A stretch of 63,198 bases of DNA, the filler included, from Fonticula-like sp. SCN 57-25 (taxonomy: Eukaryota), in the NCBI GenBank assembly GCA_001724245.1. It is 8 parts of 8 records of this genome, joined end to end, with 100 filler letters (N's around TTAATTAATTAA, not from the genome) between each part and the next. Parts side by side here need not be neighbours in the genome. Positions count along the whole stretch, not along the records: positions 8,253 to 17,268 come from MEDX01000358.1; 7 more parts are not named here. One strand, given 5' to 3'. The notes beneath the pieces were generated by a model. It searched no databases and had not been told where the DNA came from. It saw only the letters and a list, made by a program, of their open reading frames with translations. The position numbers were made by a program, and so were the translations under genes. This document shows positions 2,851-17,368 of the stretch, piece after piece (within the stretch, counting starts at the first letter, position 1; each line of letters opens with the position of its first letter).

Positions 2851-3502
2851 GCTATTCTCTCAAAGGGACGGCCGACAGGCGACCGTGAAATTTACAGCGA
2901 AAAAGGTAGAATCAAAGGGGTCAGATGCGGAGAGTGCTGCGATCAAGCTGACGCAAAATCACTCAACGGCGATGATGACTCACAATGATGTCGACACGAA
3001 AAGAACGATCCTCAACAACAAGGAATCGTACCGGGACTCGATCGGGATCAGCAACGCCTTCACGTCAATGACACCCTCACCAGATCCCTCTTGTGGCGGG
3101 AACACGATGCCCACCGTTTCTGAAATCACGTCCGGCTTGGCGATCAGCAATCGTCCCCAACCGTATGCTCAGAGCAGCTCCTTCCTCTGCGCTACTGCTT
3201 CACTCCTTACGCCGCCGCCGCCTGCACCACCCGTGTGCAGCACCAGCACCAGCCGATAAACTGGAAACCTTTTTTTTCCGAAACGTCCGCCGCCGTTTCG
3301 CTCAAAAAAAGCTGCGCGCTGTGTGGCTCGTTGCAAAATCGCAAATTTGAAATTCGATCGACCGTTACGAAATCAATAGTCCAATCGAATCGCGGCAGGT
3401 TCAACCGTCTCTGTGCCCGCCGGGATCCGCAGGGTGTTTACCGTTGTCTGGGAGCAGTTGAAGGGACGAGAGAGGGCCGAGGCAGGATAGAAAAGAGACA
3501 CC

Positions 3503-4666
3503 ATGGCGTCACCACCGTCGGAGCTGCAGCTTTTTATGGCGGTTTATGAGCACCGCCTCGAGTCGATGGGCAAGCTCAACACCAAGGCATGGCGCGAAAA
3601 GGTGCGCGGGCAATGATCTTGAAAGAATCCCTGTGGCTGACTAGATCGCGTGTGCGCGTTTGGTGAGCACAGTTTGCGCGTGCGGGATGGTATCATCCGA
3701 AGGGAAAGGACACGGGTAAGGATGAGCTTCACTGCTTTGTGTGCAAGAAGGCCATGGAGGGTTGGGAGCCGAGCGATGACCCTCGCGAGCATCGGCCCAA
3801 GCCCCCGATCGACCACTGCGCCTGGGAGAACGTCGACAAGGCCGCTCACTTCCGCTTGGCTACATTCACATTTGGCTGGAAGCACGACATGTCCCTGGCC
3901 GAATCGGTGCGCCATTTTACTTTGGCGCGCACCGCTGATCACTGACCGCATGCGCAGCTCGCCGAGTCTGGCTTCTTCTACTCGCCCACCAAGGCCAGCG
4001 CCTCTGAAGTCACCTGCTACGCCTGCGGCGTGTCGTGCAGCGGCGACTGCGCCGAGTACGTTTTTTTTTAACAAAGCCCGGCATCCCGCTCACAATTGTC
4101 GCAGGATGTTTTCCGGCGTCAAGCACAAGCGCGGCTGCTCTGCGCCGCAGACTGCCATCACAGAGTCGGCGTCTTCCGCCGCTCCGTCGAGCGCCAAGGA
4201 GAACGTCGCGCCCGCCAAGGTGAGCGCCGACGGCCCGCCCGCCAAGAAGGCCGCCAAGGGCCGCGCGCCCAAGGCGACCAAGGCCGCCGCCGCCCCCCGC
4301 TCGCGGACAGTGACGCCCGCCCCCGAGCCCACCCCCGAGCCCACCCCTGAGCCCGAGGCCGACGCCATGGAAGTGGAGTCGGTGACCGTGCCCGAGGCGG
4401 CGGACGAGAGCGACGCGATGGAAGTGTCGGTCCCCGAGGAGAGCCGCCGGTCGACGCTCGTTGCCGAAGTCGTGGTGGACGTGCCGAGCAAGGCCGCCGA
4501 GGCGGAGCCGCAGTCGTGGGAGCACACGACGACGGTCGGTCAGTACATGCAGCAGCTGTGCGACGCAGAGGTGGAGCGCGTGCGCGTCGAGAGCGAGGAG
4601 GCAATCCAGCAGTTTATTCAGCAGGTCGACTCGACGAGGCAGCAGCTGCTTGCGCTATTAGCTTGA
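3503..4666 (+). CDS. BIR1: Fungal-type survivin/Bir1 (two BIR domains, low-complexity linker, C-terminal helix); 3 introns
   Basis: Spliced translation gives BIR1 FARAGWYHP...CFVCKKAMEGWEPSDDPREH...HCAW and BIR2 RLATF...LAESGFFYSP...CYAC...KHKRGC; C-terminus TVGQYMQQLCDAEVERVR resembles fungal Bir1. Confidence 0.85.
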
Positions 4667-8252: not shown

Positions 8253-8280
8253 AAATTAAAAATAAAAAATAATTTGAAAA

Positions 8281-8400
8281 TTTTGGAGTAATTTTATATG
8301 ATTTTAATTTTTGGGTAAATTTATATGATTTTGGGTAAATTTATATGATTTTGGATAAATTTATATGATTTTAATTTTTGAGTAAATTTATATGATTTTA
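8281..8400. repeat. Tandem repeat, ~5 units of GTAAATTTATATGATTTT(AATTTTT)G (20-27 nt)
   Basis: Direct read near the contig start. Confidence 0.9.
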
Positions 8401-9010
8401 AAAAAATGAAATAATTTGATGTAAAAAAATAAATAGATGTAATATTGATAATGGTTAGCTCATTACTTTTCTCCCCAATTAAATCAAGATAAAACTTGAT
8501 TTGATTAAAAACATATAATTGAACAAACTAATTAGAGAAATTATTGTGTTGATAATTTATACAAAATTGTTAATTATATCAATATATGATTTTTTATACA
8601 AACAGCCATTATATTGAAAAGATTATATGATATGAAGTAATTTAAATTATCAACAAAAGTGATTAATAAACATAAAATATCAAATCGCTATCTTATTATT
8701 TTTTATTAAAATAAAGAAATTAAAAAATAACAAAGGAATTATAAATTAATTAAAGAACAATCAAGACAATATAAACAAAACATAATTTTGATATTAAAAT
8801 TGAGATCCGAACAATCACGCAATAAAATAAAAATAAGAGCAATACACAAGATTCAAATATAATTTGGTAAGTTCATTAACTTTTTTGCACATAAGTAAAT
8901 CAATGCGTGGTATAGGTGAACAATATTAAAATAATATTTAAATTTGCAATAGAGAGAATGATATGAACCTATATCACTTAATATAATTAAATTGAATTCA
9001 ACAAAAACTT

Positions 9011-9528
9011 TGTGAAAAATTGAAATTCTTATTGACTGCTGTGCCCATTCAAAAAGATATATATCAAAACCAATTGGTTATCAAAAATGCTCAGAGTACT
9101 CTGGAGGAAGTCTGGGCGTTGAAGTAAAATTCAACGTTAAAAAAAACGCTACTGATTGGCGGTGATATTTGTTCCTAATCTTTCCTTCTCTTTTGGACCT
9201 TTTTATGATAGTATTTTGCATCCCCTACCACAACTTAATCCGATCATCGGATTAAATTGATCAAGAGTAGGTAAAGCAAAATATTTAAAATATTTAGGAA
9301 GTAATAAGTGATTGGCTTATTTCTAAAAGAAGAGGTCTGAAAAAGACAAAAGGATGAAAAATCAGACACCTGCGACCCAGGGTGTGCATTAATTTGCGGA
9401 GTAGAAGCCACCGTGCTTCACTTGATAGTCTATCGGACCAGACGGTAGAACTAGGCGACCAAACGAAAGTTTGTAGGTTATTTGTGCGAAGTGACACTGT
9501 AACTGAAATAAAAACACTTAGCAAAATT
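9011..9528 (+). ncRNA. Large structured non-coding RNA/leader element, copy 1 (family unknown)
   Basis: Homologous to 16745-17268; multiple helices with compensatory and G-U-consistent substitutions; GAAA tetraloop hairpin 9461-9472; more GC-rich than its flanks. Confidence 0.8.
9016..9023 (+). promoter_or_regulatory. AAAATTGA Mimiviridae-type early promoter motif at the head of repeated element copy 1
   Basis: Exact octamer, conserved at the same position in copy 2. Confidence 0.7.
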
Positions 9529-9542
9529 TTATTACATTCCAG

Positions 9543-9971
9543 ATGGTCGTGGAAGGAGAATTGATTCAATGGAGAATCAACAAGGATCGTATCAAAAAGT
9601 CTTTCGGTCTTTTTTATATGTTGTCCATTCAGCAAGGGTATTCCGATATCACTATCACTGAAGATCAACACATTATTAGACTTGATCCTGATATTGTTTC
9701 CCTCAAGGAAATGAATATCATCTATGGTTACTTTCTAAAAGGTATCATTGAACTGGATGAACATCCTGATATTGACATATATTTGCGTTACCGCTTTTTG
9801 TTGGGCAATATCTTGAAAATGGAAGATTTGAGAAAAGATCCTCTTTTGGAAGAAGAAGAACAATATGAATTGTCAGATTCTGAATTGAATCCTTGGTATG
9901 ATGATTATCCTTATTCTGATGATGATGATAATTGTGGCAATGATTTTGAAGATGATTTTGATGATGATTAG
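9543..9971 (+). CDS. Hypothetical 142-aa viral protein with acidic C-terminus
   Basis: Clean ATG-to-TAG ORF in very AT-rich DNA, directly after the structured element; no recognisable motif. Confidence 0.75.
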   Translation: MVVEGELIQWRINKDRIKKSFGLFYMLSIQQGYSDITITEDQHIIRLDPDIVSLKEMNIIYGYFLKGIIELDEHPDIDIYLRYRFLLGNILKMEDLRKDPLLEEEEQYELSDSELNPWYDDYPYSDDDDNCGNDFEDDFDDD

Positions 9972-10120
9972 AGCTTTCCTATATTGACTTTTTTTATTGG
10001 CGAATATAAAAATCAATAACTTTCATTTATTTATTGGACAATTATAATAAATTCCTTTTATGCTCTCAATTAAATTCAATTAGTTTATTCATAGATAAAA
10101 TAAATCGATCCAATTGTACA

Positions 10121-10206
10121 ATCTTGCATTTTTCGATAAAGTTCAAATTGAATAATAGTCCCTATTTTTTATTATTCAATATGAATTTTATCGAATACAA
10201 CAAGAT
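10121..10206. terminator. Long palindromic hairpin (26-bp core stem 10132-10157/10170-10195), probable 3'-end signal
   Basis: TTCGATAAAGTTCAAATTGAATAATA pairs with TATTATTCAATATGAATTTTATCGAA (one G-U, one mismatch); lies downstream of ORF 9543-9971, consistent with the Mimivirus hairpin rule. Confidence 0.6.
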
Positions 10207-10216
10207 CGTATTACTG

Positions 10217-10312
10217 GAAAAAACTGAAATTTCGACTGTTCTCCCCATTTAAAAAGCTATATATCAATCCAATTGGTTATCAAAAGATGCTCGGAGTACT
10301 CTGGAGTAGCAA
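10217..10312 (+). repeat. Short third copy of the repeated element (head only, promoter changed to AAAACTGA)
   Basis: Aligns to 9014-9106 (CCCATT, CTATATATCAA, CCAATTGGTTATCAAAA, ATGCTCRGAGTACTCTGGAG), then continues TAGCAA like 9519-9524. Confidence 0.85.
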
Positions 10313-10477
10313 GGCTATATTAGGTAGGGATTTTGTTTATGATGGTATTTATGAAACCAATTATATCAAATAAAGGATATTATTTTAATAATAATTTTTC
10401 TTTGTTGTTGTTCTATTAATTATCATTTAATATTAAACTAAAATATTATATAATTAGTTAGCTAATTACTTTTCCCA

Positions 10478-10507
10478 AATTAAATCAAAATTTTAATTGA
10501 TTTAATT
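10478..10507 (-). terminator. Palindromic hairpin just after the stop of the 458-aa ORF
   Basis: AATTAAATCAA / TTGATTTAATT perfect 11-bp stem, 20 nt beyond the stop at 10528. Confidence 0.6.
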
Positions 10508-10527
10508 ATAAAACAGTAAATGAAATA

Positions 10528-11904
10528 TTATTTATTTTTACATATATATGACCTTTTTCTAACAGCATTTATATTTTTGATAATATTCTCATTCACATTA
10601 TAACCATTTTCAATTGTATCATATTTCTTTCTCAATTTTTCTACTTCTAATTCCAAATTCATATCCGAATCTTTAGTTTTTTCTTTTAATATCGAAACAT
10701 TCAGATTTATATATGGTACTGTTTCTAATAATTTTGATATTTTACTTTTGTTCTTTATTTTTGTCATGTTCTTTATCGCTAAATTATATAAATGTAATGT
10801 CGCAAATTTTAATGTTTTACCTCTCATTAAAGATATATATCTTTTTACTTTCTTCTTATCCCTGTATTTAACTTCATATACAAAACCATCAATATTATCA
10901 TAATAATCTTTCGATTTATCTTCAAATAAAGAAAATAATATATCCTTCTGAATCCTCAAAAATATATTCTTTTGTAAATTTTCAGCTTTTTTACCTACAG
11001 TACAATTATTATCAAAATATTCAGTCTGATATAAATAAAATTCATTATTATATCCTTTTTTTACACTGTCGTTCATTAATATGTATAAATCTGTCCTTAA
11101 TAAGGATTCAAATGATATATAACAATTAAATATTTCAATTATATTTAAATTTATGTCGTTTAATTTAATATCATTCAAATTTAATGACTTCTTTTTAGCT
11201 GCTGTTAATAATTTTTTTTTACTTCTTGATGTTATTTGTTCAGTTGTAACATCAATATATTTCTTGTTATCGTATTTGTTAACAAGTTCATATATATAAT
11301 ATTTTGTTTTTTCCATATTATTGGGTATACTATAGCTTATTACTTTTGTCATAATATTATCGATATAATCATGACATTGATATCTTACATTAGGTCCTTT
11401 CTTTCCTTTTTGTAAAAAAAAGTTCTCATAATATAATTTTATATTTTCTAAATCTTTTCTGGAAGCATCCTTGACATATTCTAATAATAAAATATTTGTA
11501 TCCATAGGATCTATAAACATTTTTGAAAAATTATTATCCTCATCCAACAAATATTTGTGCAAATGAATTTTTATCATTTTATAAATACTGCCTGAAGTGT
11601 GACCTGTTCTAAATTTTGAAAAATCCTTTGTGTGTATAATATATATTCTTTTCACTTTGACATCTTCATTCTCATATAATTTGCTTGATTTATTTTTTAA
11701 TTTATTATACTTTTTATTAAATTCCTTCATCTCTTTTATCATTTCTTCATCAATTTGATACTGTATTTTTTTGGCACTACGATAAACATAATAATCATTA
11801 TGTTGTTTCCATTTTTTATCATCTATATCGGGAACAAATTCATCGTCATTATTTAACTCATTATATAATTCATCATACATTTCATCATCTACAGTTTTAC
11901 TCAT
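10528..11904 (-). CDS. Protein with three tandem degenerate GIY-YIG-like nuclease modules
   Basis: RIYIIH...KFRTGHT; YYIYELVNKYDNKKYIDVT...DSVKKGYN; GFVYEVKY...RYIS...YDTIENGYN. Confidence 0.6.
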   Translation of the reverse strand: MSKTVDDEMYDELYNELNNDDEFVPDIDDKKWKQHNDYYVYRSAKKIQYQIDEEMIKEMKEFNKKYNKLKNKSSKLYENEDVKVKRIYIIHTKDFSKFRTGHTSGSIYKMIKIHLHKYLLDEDNNFSKMFIDPMDTNILLLEYVKDASRKDLENIKLYYENFFLQKGKKGPNVRYQCHDYIDNIMTKVISYSIPNNMEKTKYYIYELVNKYDNKKYIDVTTEQITSRSKKKLLTAAKKKSLNLNDIKLNDINLNIIEIFNCYISFESLLRTDLYILMNDSVKKGYNNEFYLYQTEYFDNNCTVGKKAENLQKNIFLRIQKDILFSLFEDKSKDYYDNIDGFVYEVKYRDKKKVKRYISLMRGKTLKFATLHLYNLAIKNMTKIKNKSKISKLLETVPYINLNVSILKEKTKDSDMNLELEVEKLRKKYDTIENGYNVNENIIKNINAVRKRSYICKNK

Positions 11905-11951
11905 TTTATATAATTTATATTATGCATATATATTTATATATCATTATTAAC

Positions 11952-11982
11952 TATTTTGATCAATATTTTATTCATCAAAATA
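11952..11982 (-). terminator. Hairpin immediately after the Mre11-Rad50 stop codon
   Basis: TATTTTGAT...ATCAAAATA stem plus an AAT/ATT extension, 10 nt beyond the stop. Confidence 0.55.
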
Positions 11983-11991
11983 TTAAATATA

Positions 11992-14900
11992 TTATTTATC
12001 GAAAGATATGTAACTTTCTTCATTATTCCTCTCAATGTTTATTTGATTATCAAAATTATTTTTTACATAATCATCGTGTGTTGTAATTAAACACCAATCA
12101 AATGTTGTCCGAATATATTCAAATAATGCTTTTAAATTATCTTTATGTTCTTCGTCACTATGTTTGAATCCTTCATCAATTATGAAAAAATTTGTTTTAA
12201 TATAGTTATTAATAAAACAAAATGATAATCTGAATACCATATTATCTATTCCTCTCTCATGTCCGCTATTTAATAAAACATTATTCTTCTTATTATTGTA
12301 TTCTTTATAAATTCTAAAATTCTGTTTGTCATCATATTCTATTTTTATATTATAGTCTTCTACACAATTTAGTATATTATTAACTGCTAATTCGAGTGTA
12401 GGTATTATTGTTTTTTTTAATATTTCATCATTTATTCCTCCTTTATTAAATATAGATATTATATTATCATAAATTTGTCGCTCTTTTTCATCGTTCTGGA
12501 TTTTATCGTTTAATTGTTTGAAATAATGTATATCATTATCTAGTTTGTATAATTGCAAATTCCTTTGATTTTTCTGATTTATTGTTTCAGCTAAATTACT
12601 CTGATAATCCGTTAATCTTGTGTTATTATTATTTATTCTGTCTTTTAATCTTTCCAACTCTGTATATTTTATTTCAATATCTTTTTGTTTATTGTATTGA
12701 TCTTCTATTAATAATACTTCATTCTCTAAATTTAATTTTAATTTATCAATATTGCTTAATTCTGTATTTAATTCAAATATTTTATTATTGATATTTTCTC
12801 TATTATTTTTTATTTTATCATATTCCATATTAAATTTATTTATTTTACCAGTTGTTACAAACATTTCTTTCTCAACATCAACAATTTCTATCTCTAAATA
12901 TTTATTGAATTGTATATTTTCTCGATTTATATCATATTCATATTTTTTTGAATTCTCATTTTGTAAATCTTTTTCTAATAATAATATTTCCCTTTTAATT
13001 ATCAATAAATCTTTGTTAATTTCATCTATCTTATTTGTTAATAACTCATTTGTCTTTATTTGATCAAGAATCATATAATATTCGTTCATTATTGATCTAT
13101 TTTTTACTATTATTTTATCTAATTTTGTTAATTCTACATTCAAGTCATTCAATTTTTGATTATACTCTTTTATTATCTTTTCTATTGACAATCTTTGTTT
13201 GGTTAATTCATTATTCATACATACCTCACAATTCTTGTTATATTTGTGTTTATCTAATTTACGCAAAATTATTCCATACTCATCTGTTTTTTTTATTATT
13301 TCTTCCTTCTCTCTCTCCAAATTATTTTTAGCTAATATTGATTTATCATATAATTCTACTTTTTTTGTCATATCTACTGTTACTGATTTTAATATTATTT
13401 GTTTCCTTAAAGTTTCAATATTATAAAGCTTATTCTCATGCTTTTTTTTCAAATTGTCAATCTCTATTTCTAAATTAGATATCTTATTATTTAGTATCTT
13501 GATGTCCATGTTATCAAAAACTGCGATTTTTTGGTTCCTTAGTTTTTGTAACATATCTAACAATCTACTTTTTTCTTTTTCCATTAATCCAACTTCATAT
13601 TTATCTTCGTCATAAATCAATATTTCTTCGTTTAAATTATTTAGTTCTGTAGAATAATTCTTTATTTGATTCTCAATATATCGCTTATTTTCTATAATTT
13701 TATTTAATTCTTTTTTTTTAATGTTAAGATCGGTAGATAATATTTTTACTCCTTTGTTCTTACTAATGATATCATTTAATTCCTTATATTTATGATTGTC
13801 TATTACTAATTCTGATTTTAATTGATCAATAATGTTGTTCAATTGATTAATATCTATATCAATACATTTTAATTCATCTACTATTGTTTTCATCTCACTA
13901 TCTATCTTTTCTAAATTATAAATTTTTATGTTGCTCAAGTTCGTATTGATTGCGGAAGATAATTCTAATTTTAAACTGTTCGCTTTTTTTGAAATTTCTC
14001 TAAATACGTCTAATCTGAAAAGCTTATTTAAAAAAACTTTTTTATCAGTCTGCTTCATATCAACAAAATTGTATGGCTGATTTTGTGTCATAATACATGT
14101 TTTTAAATAATCGTCATAATGACCAAATATTTTTAATATTTCTTTATCTGTCTCCATTTTACTATCCTTCGATATATTAACCTCTTTATTTATATCATAT
14201 CTGTATATATTAACATCTTCACTAACTTTTGAACTATTTTTATTCAATTTTGCTTTTCTTACAATCCTATATTTTACTTGATTTAGAGAAATTAATATAT
14301 CTGTTTCATATTTCGTTTTTTTATTATTTATTATATCATTATTTGATACACCCTTAGTATTCTCTCCCCAAATTGATTGTATGATGATTTCAATCATACT
14401 GGATTTACCATATTTATTTGGTGCTAAGAGACCAACTATTTTATTTAAATTTTTGAAATTTATTTGATTATTCTCTCCATATACATATAAGTTATTGAAT
14501 TTTAATAATAATAATTTAAAATTTCTTTCTTTATTATCATTATTTATCTCTATGACATCCAGTATTTTCTCTAAATATTTCTTCATTTTAGATTTCGTAT
14601 CACTATCGTATTTTTTCTGATCTATGTAATTATTTATTAAAGATTTTGTGCTTGATATGCTCTTCAATTGATCAGTTATTATCATTTTGTTTGAATCATA
14701 CAAGTCTTTTTTTATTCCTCTCAAGTCTTCAATCTCTCTTAATTCTATTATATTAAATTTACTCTTGTATTGCTCTATTATTTCCTGTTTTTTTGCTTTA
14801 GTCACATTGTTCCAAATAAATTTTATTCTCACATTCTTCGGTATTTTTTTATTTTCATAAGGATCAGCAATTTTATTTTCATTTACTCTCACTGTTAAAT

Positions 14901-15750
14901 AACAATAATCATTCTCTATTCGAATATATTCTGATTTTTTATTTTCAAGATCCCATTTTATCGTACCATGATCGTGTATGTTCTCATTGTGACTTAATTG
15001 TAATAAACTACTTGGATACGCTGCCGTTTTATTTTTATTTAAGTATTGAAATTTATGTATATCACCTAATAGTAAATAATCTCCTGTTTCAAAATCCTGT
15101 AAATTAAATCTTCCTACTATATATTCCTCATTTCCATTCTCTAATGTTGCTCCATGTATGAATCCATGATACAAACTTATTTTTATTTTTTCAGTATCAA
15201 AATCAAATTTAGTTGTTTCAGCATCATATAAACTTGTTAAACCAAATATTATATTGTTATACTCATAATATTTTTCCTTCAATAGATGTAATTTATTCTT
15301 TGTATTGAAATTTTGTGTTATAATTGGAGTTAATACATCCATTGCTTCCTTATTTGATGCAGGTTTTTCGTGATTACCTAATATAACAATACAATCTGTT
15401 AATAAACATAAATTATAAAAAAAGAGTTTTATCATGGATATTGCTTCGGGTTTTATATTAGTCTTGTTATCAAATATATCTCCGCATATTACAATTATAG
15501 ATTCGTCTAAATTTCCTTGTGATTTTATCGTTTCATATAATCGCTTAAATACAATATCATAGGAATTCCTCGTTTCCTGACAATTACGAATATGAATATC
15601 TGCCATATGATAAATATACCTTATTTTCTTGTTTGTTGATGATTCTAATTTTATTATATTGGGTTTGTAATTAACATACATCGATTTGTTTTTGGTTTTT
15701 TCTTTAATAACCCTAATTTTATTCTTTTTCATGTGAATTTTATCCTTCAT
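11992..15750 (-). CDS. Mre11/SbcD-Rad50/SbcC fusion DNA repair nuclease-ATPase (Mimivirus R555-like architecture)
   Basis: Phosphoesterase motifs HMADIH, GDIFD, GNHE, YHG, GDIH; Walker A APNKYGKSS; Q-loop MTQ; coiled coil with CEVC zinc hook; signature NSGHE; Walker B IIDEGF; H-loop TTHD. Confidence 0.95.
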   Translation of the reverse strand: MKDKIHMKKNKIRVIKEKTKNKSMYVNYKPNIIKLESSTNKKIRYIYHMADIHIRNCQETRNSYDIVFKRLYETIKSQGNLDESIIVICGDIFDNKTNIKPEAISMIKLFFYNLCLLTDCIVILGNHEKPASNKEAMDVLTPIITQNFNTKNKLHLLKEKYYEYNNIIFGLTSLYDAETTKFDFDTEKIKISLYHGFIHGATLENGNEEYIVGRFNLQDFETGDYLLLGDIHKFQYLNKNKTAAYPSSLLQLSHNENIHDHGTIKWDLENKKSEYIRIENDYCYLTVRVNENKIADPYENKKIPKNVRIKFIWNNVTKAKKQEIIEQYKSKFNIIELREIEDLRGIKKDLYDSNKMIITDQLKSISSTKSLINNYIDQKKYDSDTKSKMKKYLEKILDVIEINNDNKERNFKLLLLKFNNLYVYGENNQINFKNLNKIVGLLAPNKYGKSSMIEIIIQSIWGENTKGVSNNDIINNKKTKYETDILISLNQVKYRIVRKAKLNKNSSKVSEDVNIYRYDINKEVNISKDSKMETDKEILKIFGHYDDYLKTCIMTQNQPYNFVDMKQTDKKVFLNKLFRLDVFREISKKANSLKLELSSAINTNLSNIKIYNLEKIDSEMKTIVDELKCIDIDINQLNNIIDQLKSELVIDNHKYKELNDIISKNKGVKILSTDLNIKKKELNKIIENKRYIENQIKNYSTELNNLNEEILIYDEDKYEVGLMEKEKSRLLDMLQKLRNQKIAVFDNMDIKILNNKISNLEIEIDNLKKKHENKLYNIETLRKQIILKSVTVDMTKKVELYDKSILAKNNLEREKEEIIKKTDEYGIILRKLDKHKYNKNCEVCMNNELTKQRLSIEKIIKEYNQKLNDLNVELTKLDKIIVKNRSIMNEYYMILDQIKTNELLTNKIDEINKDLLIIKREILLLEKDLQNENSKKYEYDINRENIQFNKYLEIEIVDVEKEMFVTTGKINKFNMEYDKIKNNRENINNKIFELNTELSNIDKLKLNLENEVLLIEDQYNKQKDIEIKYTELERLKDRINNNNTRLTDYQSNLAETINQKNQRNLQLYKLDNDIHYFKQLNDKIQNDEKERQIYDNIISIFNKGGINDEILKKTIIPTLELAVNNILNCVEDYNIKIEYDDKQNFRIYKEYNNKKNNVLLNSGHERGIDNMVFRLSFCFINNYIKTNFFIIDEGFKHSDEEHKDNLKALFEYIRTTFDWCLITTHDDYVKNNFDNQINIERNNEESYISFDK

Positions 15751-15828
15751 ATAAATTTTATATTTATACTATTTATATGTTTCTATGCTATATATATTAT
15801 TTGCCACCAAATAATATCCAGTTAATTT

Positions 15829-16212
15829 TTACAATTTTATCGAATAAAATGTATCCGTCTCAACTTTTTTCCCATTCCTCTTTGTTACATAATGGGTGCT
15901 GAATATTAATCCTAAATCATTACACATCCCTTTTAAAACAGTTAATAAATAATAATGAATATTGTTTTTTTGATTATATTTTAAGGCGCTCTTATTGAAA
16001 ACTTTATAAATTTCATCTTCCATATTTCTATAATCATCCATATTTTTATCAATTAATAATTCTTCTCTTTTTATATTCTCAAACTCAATTACATCTTGTA
16101 TCGTATTTTTATTTATATTCTTCAATATCTTATTTATTAATTTTAATAATATATCATATTTTTTATTGACCTTTTTCTTTGCGATATTTTCTAAAATAGA
16201 AATAGTTGTCAT
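15829..16212 (-). CDS. Hypothetical 127-aa viral protein
   Basis: Intact ORF, co-oriented with Mre11-Rad50, AAAATTGA ~43 nt upstream. Confidence 0.75.
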   Translation of the reverse strand: MTTISILENIAKKKVNKKYDILLKLINKILKNINKNTIQDVIEFENIKREELLIDKNMDDYRNMEDEIYKVFNKSALKYNQKNNIHYYLLTVLKGMCNDLGLIFSTHYVTKRNGKKVETDTFYSIKL

Positions 16213-16254
16213 TGCTACTTAAATAATATAACTTTGAATCATAATTTATATTTA

Positions 16255-16262
16255 TCAATTTT
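16255..16262 (-). promoter_or_regulatory. AAAATTGA early promoter motif for the 127-aa ORF
   Basis: TCAATTTT on the + strand, ~43 nt upstream of the ATG at 16212. Confidence 0.7.
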
Positions 16263-16452
16263 TTATTGTCACCTTATTACTTTTCCAATTTTGATTAAAT
16301 CTATTTTAATCAAAATCATTCCATATAATTGTTCATTATCTTGTTGAACTCGAGAAATTATATGATTTATCCATTATTTATATAATTTATATTAATCCAT
16401 TTTTATCTATATTTTAGATTATTTGAAATTGATTACCTTATTACTTTCCACG

Positions 16453-16685
16453 AACATAATAAAGCATAGCTGTAATTAGGTTTTCAGATTTTACTGGTTT
16501 CTGCTACTGATATATATGTTGATTAATATTGTTGTTCCAAATATGAAAACATAATAAAATGTAGCTGTAATTAGGTTCTCAGATTTTACTGGTTTATGCT
16601 ATTGATATATATATGTTGATTAATATTGTTGTTCCAAATATGATTATATTTCAACAATATTGATCAACATATATTACAATAGCAT
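16453..16685. repeat. 95-nt direct tandem duplication (16453-16547, 16548-16644) plus an inverted partial copy forming a long hairpin (16596-16685)
   Basis: TAGCTGTAATTAGGTTYTCAGATTTTACTGGTTT...GTTGATTAATATTGTTGTTCCAAATATGA occurs twice; CAACAATATTGATCAACATATA...CAATAGCAT is the reverse complement of part of the unit. Confidence 0.9.
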
Positions 16686-16744
16686 GGTTCTTAAATAAAA
16701 TTGTTCTATTCAATATAATTATATCAAATACAAGCAGAATTTCA

Positions 16745-17268
16745 TGTGAAAAATTGAAATTTCTATTGACTGCTTTCCCCATTCAAAAAGCTATATATCA
16801 AAACCAATTGGTTATCAAAAATGCTCAGAGTACTCTGGAGGAAGTCTGAGCGTTGAAGTTAAATTCAACGTTAAAAAAAACGCTACTGATTGGCGGTGAT
16901 ATTTGTTCCGAATCTCTCTTCTTCTTTGAACCTTTATATGATAATACAATGCATCCCCTACCACAGTTTAAGCTAGTTACTGTATAGTAATCTTAATCTG
17001 ATCAAGAGTAGGTAAAGTAAAGTATTTAAAGTATAAAGGAAGTAATAAGTGTTTGGCTTATTTTCAAAGAAAAAGTTTGTGGAAGACAAAAGGATGAAAA
17101 ATCAGACACCTGCGACCCAGGGTGTGCATTAACTTGCGGAGTAGAAGCCACCGCGCTTCACTTGATAGGCTATCGGACCAGACGGTAGAACTAGGCGACC
17201 AAACGAAAGTTTGTAGGTTATTTGTGCGAAGTGACACTGTAACTGAAATAAAAACACTTAGCAAAATT
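16745..17268 (+). ncRNA. Large structured non-coding RNA/leader element, copy 2 (runs to the contig end)
   Basis: Homologous to 9011-9528, with covarying helices. Confidence 0.8.
16750..16757 (+). promoter_or_regulatory. AAAATTGA early promoter motif at the head of repeated element copy 2
   Basis: Exact octamer, same context as 9016-9023. Confidence 0.7.
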
Positions 17269-17368
17269 NNNNNNNNNNNNNNNNNNNNNNNNNNNNNNNN
17301 NNNNNNNNNNNNTTAATTAATTAANNNNNNNNNNNNNNNNNNNNNNNNNNNNNNNNNNNNNNNNNNNN

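Follow-up and report, generated by a model that had tools for sequence, protein, structure and literature searches.

Giant viruses are noted for the proteins they encode, and to our knowledge their RNA genes beyond tRNAs and introns are almost unexplored. GOLLD, ROOL, and OLE, which are large structured orphan RNAs from bacteria and phages, are present in Rfam, and the VA RNA of adenovirus and the EBERs of herpesviruses are abundant decoys of ~160 nt that are produced by host polymerase III. In Mimivirus, 33 non-coding RNA genes of unknown function were annotated from transcripts, and no conserved fold is reported for them in the available text of that study (PMC3058096). Group I introns and sequences designated "18S rRNA intronic region", some of which are intergenic, multi-copy, and highly expressed, are described for Megavirinae and klosneuviruses in the accessible parts of three reports (PMC5829246, PMC8387033, PMC5871332). 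In addition, the MIGE repeats of alga-infecting mimivirids combine, according to the available text, a multi-copy non-coding piece with a small ORF that has a zinc-finger motif (bioRxiv 10.1101/299784).

The RNA described here resembles the Mimivirus genes in forming ORF-less mimivirid transcription units. However, those genes are transcript-defined, whereas the present family has a covarying fold of 14 helices and multiple, tandem copies, some of them fused to an ORF; this contrast is drawn from the published description of the Mimivirus genes. As with the introns of group I and the "18S rRNA intronic region" sequences, it is structured, several hundred nucleotides long, and located in mimivirid genomes. 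Because these are known structured RNAs of this virus family, the exclusion of group I matters: the group I model RF00028 gave no match at gathering score in the window (the whole stretch of DNA that was analyzed, 63,198 nt) and none at E ≤ 10 in 8700-9900 or in three related metagenome contigs (L013, L014, and L004), and the present RNA has another helix order and pseudoknot, lacks a host gene and exons, and has its own promoter in eight of nine units. With GOLLD, ROOL, and OLE it shares large size, an intricate fold, comparative discovery, an unknown function, and carriage that is often viral, but it comes from a eukaryote-infecting giant virus and has no sequence or model match to them. MIGE elements are similar in plan, but the present units are mostly ORF-less and their ORF belongs to no Pfam family. 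VA RNA and the EBERs are an analogy for the proposed working only (early, abundant, folded, and bound by host proteins); their fold is unrelated. Thus, a viral non-coding RNA gene as such is not new, but the RNA class, by its size and fold, is. It resembles no described RNA family and probably represents a novel type of viral RNA, and the main texts of the literature searched contained no description of it.

The window consists of eight contigs joined via N linkers around TTAATTAATTAA. The contig at 8253-17268 has a GC content of 24%, versus 50-65% for the other seven. Its largest gene (11992-15750, minus strand, 1252 aa) encodes the fused Mre11-Rad50 "DNA repair protein" of Mimiviridae. This protein has 504 database relatives, the best of which (P0001, 62% identical) is encoded on a 1.3-Mb contig; named relatives belong to Edafosvirus and moumouviruses. 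Because this gene and its relatives are mimivirid and the GC content differs so clearly, 8253-17268 is a mimivirid fragment binned with unrelated GC-rich DNA. The preliminary description had regarded the contig as giant-virus-like, and the fusion gene now assigns it to the mimivirids. It is the only AT-rich, viral part of the window and looks mis-binned into a bacterial-type assembly. Two further ORFs of this contig, 10528-11904 (minus strand, 458 aa) and 15829-16212 (minus strand, 127 aa), matched no Pfam family at E ≤ 0.01, and the contig starts with five tandem copies of a 20-27-nt unit (TTTGGGTAAATTTATATGATTT-like, 8271-8399).

The two copies of the element are homologous at the positions first proposed, 9011-9528 (copy 1) and 16745-17268 (copy 2), both on the + strand. 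According to the repeat finder, their first 183 nt are 93% identical (9011-9193/16745-16927) and their last 208 nt are 95% identical (9321-9528/17061-17268). Copy 2, whose promoter motif is at 16750-16757 and whose 3' core is at 17092-17199, is truncated by the contig end, as the N linker starts at 17269. A 95-nt tandem duplication (16453-16684, 91-100% identical) lies immediately before it, and the ends of this duplication form an inverted repeat with 16652-16684. The last ~185 nt of the two copies had been said to differ at three sites, all compatible with the fold; these sites (9393, 9414, and 9429) each fall in a loop or bulge of the fold derived below. A partial third copy is present at 10219-10308 (+ strand; nhmmer E 3e-10), which contains a promoter-like motif, the leader, and the first hairpin only and then diverges. 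Between it and the ORF downstream of copy 1 there is an inverted repeat with 49-nt arms (10109-10218, 80% complementary, 12 nt apart) that may be a 3'-end hairpin.

To collect further copies, one 3'-core variant from public sequencing runs was turned into a degenerate pattern and used for a metagenome scan. Among the 12 loci retrieved, four were true relatives (L004, L013, L005, and L014) and eight were chance matches. L004 comes from the same virus as the window and shows copy 2 running into the same kind of ORF as copy 1; blastn against L004, which corresponds to copy 2, gave 88% identity over 556 nt. L013 and its near-duplicate L005 carry four tandem units, and L014 carries one shortened unit (a) and two minimal units (b and c) that lack the whole middle arm. 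In total, seven further units were found in the three metagenome contigs L013/L005, L014, and L004. A covariance model of the 3' core recovered all known units with E-values from 3e-33 to 1e-20, and the minimal L014 units were recovered as well. It also detected a decayed remnant of the 3' core between two units of L014 (4637-4716, E 0.002), which suggests that copies have been gained and have decayed repeatedly. Upstream of the L014 units, a gene (3500-4100) encodes tandem repeats which we take to be of the FNIP/leucine-rich type and, presumably, typical of giant viruses.

Other collections yielded no additional member. Four motif scans of IMG/VR (2, 0, 5, and 56 loci) returned chance matches only, among which nhmmer saw no copy, and all 30 loci from a motif scan of genome contigs were judged by nhmmer to be chance. 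Phage records searched with blastn contained no match to the element, and a locus search with a single protein gave no further copies. Another 80 mimivirid loci, which surround the Mre11-Rad50 gene and total 1.19 Mb, gave no match at E ≤ 1 with either nhmmer or the covariance model. The viruses of these loci are all distant (≤35% identity), and for this reason the result limits the spread of the family without proving absence.

The copies had been described as lacking a credible long ORF, and the larger set agrees: no frame is conserved, there are 3-22 stops per frame in each unit, and the single frame without stops in the window copies is broken in other units. Public gene calls (P0122 and P0123) extend into the 3' core, but a protein-coding 3' core was rejected, as the frame is broken in L013 units 2, 3, and 4 and, in copy 1, is out of frame with the downstream ORF owing to a 13-nt difference from L004. 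Comparison of L004 250-300 with window 9528-9542 showed 13 additional bases between the element and the ORF start in L004 which are absent from copy 1. The public gene calls are longer (172 and 207 aa) because these 13 bases bring the ORF in frame with the 3' core.

To derive the fold, we used an alignment (A3) of seven sequences from three contig groups. RNAalifold predicted 87 pairs on A3, 24 of which have compensatory changes. Addition of a pairing from the preliminary description (9152-9157 with 9360-9365) to these pairs gives an H-type pseudoknot, and the full fold then comprises 93 pairs in 14 helices. All parts described below are on the + strand.

The 5' end is an A-rich leader with conserved GACTG and CCCAT boxes (9024-9088). 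Helix 1, which closes the structure, has only 3 bp (GCC 9043-9045 with GGC 9454-9456, 90.5% paired) and is weakly supported, showing one G-C to A-U double change and two mismatches. The 5' hairpin region (9089-9117) contains helix 2 (9090-9094 with 9112-9116, 100% paired), which encloses a conserved 17-nt loop and in L013 unit 2 shows a double change from A-U to G-C. An alternative 5' pairing, 9090-9095 with 9100-9106, is mutually exclusive with helix 2, and by eye both fit all units. A perfect 10-nt palindrome, AGAGTACTCT, is present in this first hairpin (9093-9102) and kept in most units; it could serve as an RNA dimerization site or a DNA-binding site. The next hairpin, CGUUGA/UCAACG (9117-9136), has six invariant pairs (100% paired) and a loop whose length varies between units.

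The pseudoknot connects the two halves of the molecule around the middle arm. Its stem 1 is helix 4 (9147-9150 with 9158-9161, 95.8% paired, with a C-G to U-A double change), and the loop of this stem, 9152-9157, is the 5' strand of stem 2, whose 3' strand is AAUCAG (9360-9365). Stem 2 is 100% paired; it is G-C in four units and A-U in two of A3, and by eye A-U is also found in L014 units b and c. The long variable arm (9168-9350) contains a three-way junction of helices 6-10, in which 12 of 39 pairs are changed on both sides. It is the fastest-evolving part of the RNA. L013 unit 3 and L014 unit a have a shorter version of it, and L014 units b and c have none. In some contigs from public runs, RNA-library ones among them, 199 other letters stand in place of the middle (9148-9346).

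Four local hairpins follow. Helix 11 (9366-9385, 97.6% paired, two pairs changed on both sides) carries a conserved 8-nt loop. The GCA/UGC mini-hairpin (9386-9397) has three invariant pairs and therefore shows sequence conservation only. Helix 13, with a bulged A (9399-9423), is 100% paired with four pairs changed on both sides. Contigs of four public runs were aligned to 8600-10100 and gave many element variants, stretches without coverage being uninformative. In these contigs, 9408 C>T and 9415 G>A occur together in equal contig numbers, as do 9400 A>G and 9422 T>C. Helix 14 (9426-9453, 98.4% paired) bears the near-invariant loop GACCAGA (9436-9442) and has an own double change in each of L013 units 1, 2, and 3. 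Two candidate kissing partners of the GACCAGA loop, 9100-9104 and 9110-9115, do not covary. Not every part is essential, as the 5' strand of the pseudoknot is missing from L014 unit a, and helices 13 and 14 are missing from L014 units b and c.

Several pairings of the preliminary description reappeared in this analysis. GCTCAGA/TCTGRGC, CGTTGA/TCAACG, CTGATT/AATCAG (9152-9157/9360-9365), and GAAGC/GCTTC, as well as the stems of the middle arm, were recovered independently on the seven sequences, by RNAalifold or by hand. Two others are restricted to some of the units. The AAAC-GAAA-GTTT hairpin is present in units with a long 3' end only, and its tetraloop is not conserved, L013 unit 4 having a 7-bp stem and a 3-nt loop. 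The pairing TAATTTGC/GTAGGTTA is possible in the same ORF-linked units (type B, see below), its sole support being a one-sided change. A pairing between the tail of the tandem units (type A, see below) and the invariant mini-hairpin region showed, by eye, no compensating change.

Covariation had first been read from the two window copies, and it stands on seven sequences against shuffled and slid controls. Standard pairs are formed in 96.3% of the cells of the full fold, and 25 pairs are changed on both sides, compared with 11.3±2.3 in 500 shuffles (0/500 as high), the structure having been derived from the same alignment on which it was counted. When partners were shifted by 1-3 columns, only 3-7 both-side changes were found and 36-45% of cells were paired. 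Given the three contig groups, many of these changes may be inherited and not independent. With regard to the strand, the alignment contains 55 G·U cells and nine A·C cells, and pairing drops from 96.3% on the + strand to 88.7% when read on the - strand. Since G·U exceeds A·C and the - reading lowers pairing, the RNA is the + strand, as originally proposed, which agrees with the promoter. Fold z-scores are -4.19 for the + strand and -2.15 for the - strand, and the GC content of the cores is 43-48% in a contig of 24% GC. The element is a multi-copy, single-stranded-RNA-type fold under purifying selection on the + strand, the ORF-less units included.

These data bear on the possibility that the element is a repeat acting at the DNA level, be it in regulation or as a recombination joint, or else a duplicated spacer without function, the apparent fold being a by-product. 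Copies are found at contig breaks and in tandem arrays, they share the palindrome at 9093-9102, and kinship of copies can inflate measures of covariation. However, compensatory changes are 3-8 times as frequent as in the slid controls, which retain that kinship; the G·U asymmetry shows one functional strand; and the GC content is above that of the surrounding DNA. We consider a DNA-level explanation very improbable.

The question of a known RNA family was addressed with Rfam. No family matched the window at gathering score, and a search at E ≤ 10 gave only noise (five hits, best E 1.2), in keeping with the earlier failure to recognize the family. The RNase P and MRP models likewise had no match at E ≤ 10. 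A group I core has a P3/P7 pseudoknot, a P4-P6 domain between its strands, and a J8/7 strand of several nucleotides. In the present RNA, the covarying pseudoknot is instead formed by a hairpin loop that pairs with a strand behind a single long arm, and by eye only 1 nt separates the next hairpin from the sole candidate for a second P7 strand. In addition, there are no exons, a promoter motif and an A-rich leader lie upstream, and the units occur in tandem; a group I intron was rejected on these grounds.

RNase P and MRP RNAs have a long-range P4 helix between their CR-I and CR-V boxes, and 9103-9118 resembles what we take to be a CR-I box. This stretch pairs locally with a strand 20 nt upstream (helix 2, supported by a compensatory change), and its possible distant partner is the loop of helix 14, itself supported by covariation; the complementarity is 6 bp in copy 1 and about 4/6 in the L013 units. 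An RNase P-like RNA was also rejected. The MIGE repeats were set aside as well, as the orphan ORF lacks a Pfam family, the MIGE ORF being zinc-finger, and six of nine units are ORF-less. A highly diverged member of a known family, either a relic of a group I intron or an RNase P/MRP-like RNA that AT-rich drift has hidden from Rfam, would be favored by the likeness to CR-I and by the frequency of group I introns and intron-derived sequences in Mimiviridae and klosneuviruses as given in the available texts (PMC5829246, PMC5871332). Against this, nothing was found at E ≤ 10 in four sources, the helix order fits neither family, the CR-I-like stretch pairs locally while its distant partner lies inside the loop of a covarying hairpin, complementarity is lost in the L013 units, and flanking exons are absent. 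We regard hidden membership in such a family as hardly credible.

Copy 1 has an exact match to AAAATTGA, an early-promoter-type motif, at 9016-9023 (+ strand), and the same motif or a one-off variant is found in the same place in copy 2, the fragment at 10219, L013 units 1-4, and L014 units a and b. The motif, pointed out earlier for the window, thus precedes eight of nine full or minimal units and the fragment, L014 unit c being without it, and the units begin a few bases past it. Motifs of this type are early promoters in Mimiviridae according to the available text (PMC5829246). The whole window contains nine occurrences against 3.75 expected, a number reached by 2/100 shuffles, which alone is weak evidence.

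The units fall into two types according to their 3' ends. Type A (L013 units 1-3 and L014 unit a) ends shortly past the last conserved hairpin, its tail being made up of an A-rich stretch, CTTTCC, and a T-run; these units are in tandem and have no ORF. By its likeness to the boxes described below, the CTTTCC box with T-run would be a gene-end signal of this virus, so that type A units would be complete transcription units. Type B (both window copies and L013 unit 4) continues for ~70 more conserved nucleotides with a small hairpin and no T-run, and then an ORF begins. This extension (9457-9528, + strand, small hairpin at 9460-9473) is common to copy 1, copy 2/L004, and L013 unit 4. The orphan ORF (9543-9971, + strand, 142 aa with an acidic tail) has a counterpart behind every long-type unit and is 30% identical to the ORF behind L013 unit 4; overall, an ORF is present behind three of nine units and absent in six. 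The ORF has only two close database relatives and no Pfam family, and the predicted structure of its product (pLDDT 46) is too poor to use. A CTTTCC...TTTTTTT box lies directly past its stop codon (9974-9995, + strand), resembles the type A tails, and would likewise be a gene-end signal; the window has two matches to this box versus 0.05 expected. The viral contig also has three occurrences of a related ACTTTTCC box, each with a hairpin of 11-12 bp behind it. The repeated TTACTTTTCC box with an AT-rich hairpin of 11-12 bp, at 8463-8506, 10466-10507, and 16276-16316 (fold z-scores -2.8 to -4.8), is probably the hairpin-type gene-end signal of the virus, of which CTTTCC plus T-run, at the ends of the ORF-less units and at 9974-9995, is a shorter form.

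This arrangement raises the possibility that the element is a cis-acting 5' leader of the orphan ORF, either IRES-like or controlling stability or translation, and that the ORF-less units are decaying duplicates. Each of the three long-type units, namely copy 1, copy 2/L004, and L013 unit 4/L005, has a homologous ORF on the same strand ~15-60 nt behind it. No T-run separates the RNA core from the ORF, scanning would be impeded by the upstream AUGs that the element contains, and one RNA-library contig spans 9501-9722. On the other hand, ORF-less units are more numerous than ORF-linked ones, they keep the fold by compensatory changes of their own, and they have their own promoter motifs and tails. 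Moreover, no Rfam IRES family matched, and by eye a promoter-like TAACTGAAAT box within the 3' extension could drive the ORF separately. A leader role appears unlikely to us.

It is also conceivable that the element is a catalytic RNA of a new class, which might, for instance, release itself from leader or tandem transcripts or have another RNA as its substrate. Ribozymes typically have such a size, a pseudoknotted multi-helix junction, and near-invariant unpaired nucleotides; the adjoining L014 units b and c have no promoter between them and would require processing; and a position directly before an ORF is known for the lariat-capping ribozyme. However, there was no match to a known ribozyme family, the public-run contigs showed neither a cleavage site nor a joint, most units have their own promoter, and the minimal units lack two conserved hairpins. 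We therefore rate catalysis as a doubtful explanation.

The reading that we favor, and consider probable, is that the units are stand-alone structured non-coding RNA genes of ~430-460 nt, present in several diverged copies in a clade of wastewater Mimiviridae. Since the fold is retained in units without an ORF, we prefer such genes to a pure leader. The preliminary description had proposed a functional, multicopy large RNA, with a ribozyme, an IRES-like leader, or a mobile RNA as candidate roles; for the functional, multicopy RNA as such, the absence of an Rfam family, the covariation, the + strand, the mimivirid contig, and the promoter all bear this out. As the motif indicates, the viral polymerase would start at the AAAATTGA-type early promoter, and the + strand RNA folds into the multi-helix junction that covariation defines, with a short closing helix between 5' and 3' ends, the H-type pseudoknot 9147-9161/9360-9365, four conserved hairpins, and one long, fast-evolving arm. 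The near-invariant loops, that is, the 17-nt loop 9095-9111, GACCAGA (9436-9442), and 9372-9379, may be contact surfaces. Type A transcripts would terminate at CTTTCC plus the T-run as complete RNA genes, and type B transcripts, both window copies included, have no such tail and would continue into the orphan ORF. For the stand-alone RNA genes, the most likely role is a trans-acting scaffold or decoy for proteins, made early in infection and multiplied by tandem duplication, which we put forward tentatively. A more speculative and rather unlikely proposal is a new class of large giant-virus RNA that is a ribozyme or binds ribosomes or translation factors, working alone in type A and as a leader in type B.

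Variants of the element occur in DNA runs from wastewater and sludge. Thirteen public runs contained at least a fifth of the sampled words, and all are labeled as bioreactor, wastewater, sludge, or anaerobic-digester metagenomes; these runs represent ten studies, and the source sample may belong to one of them. Runs with small word shares (X14-X20 except X19) were not taken as evidence of habitat. Element variants were also found in two RNA libraries from two studies (X10 and X19), in which contigs show presence and not strand or ends, and DNA carry-over is possible; their presence lends weak support to transcription.

Large RNAs with such folds are mostly ribozymes or cores of RNA-protein machines. 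An RNA with 14 helices and a pseudoknot kept by compensatory mutation very likely does something specific. This family, which is multi-copy and has one fast-evolving arm, occurs commonly in the communities of wastewater and sludge. According to the available text (PMC11043551), this habitat has yielded isolates of relatives of the virus, so that the function of the RNA could be tested by experiment. If the proposal of a new ribozyme or translation-binding class were true, this RNA would be the first RNA-based machine in the giant-virus takeover of host gene expression.
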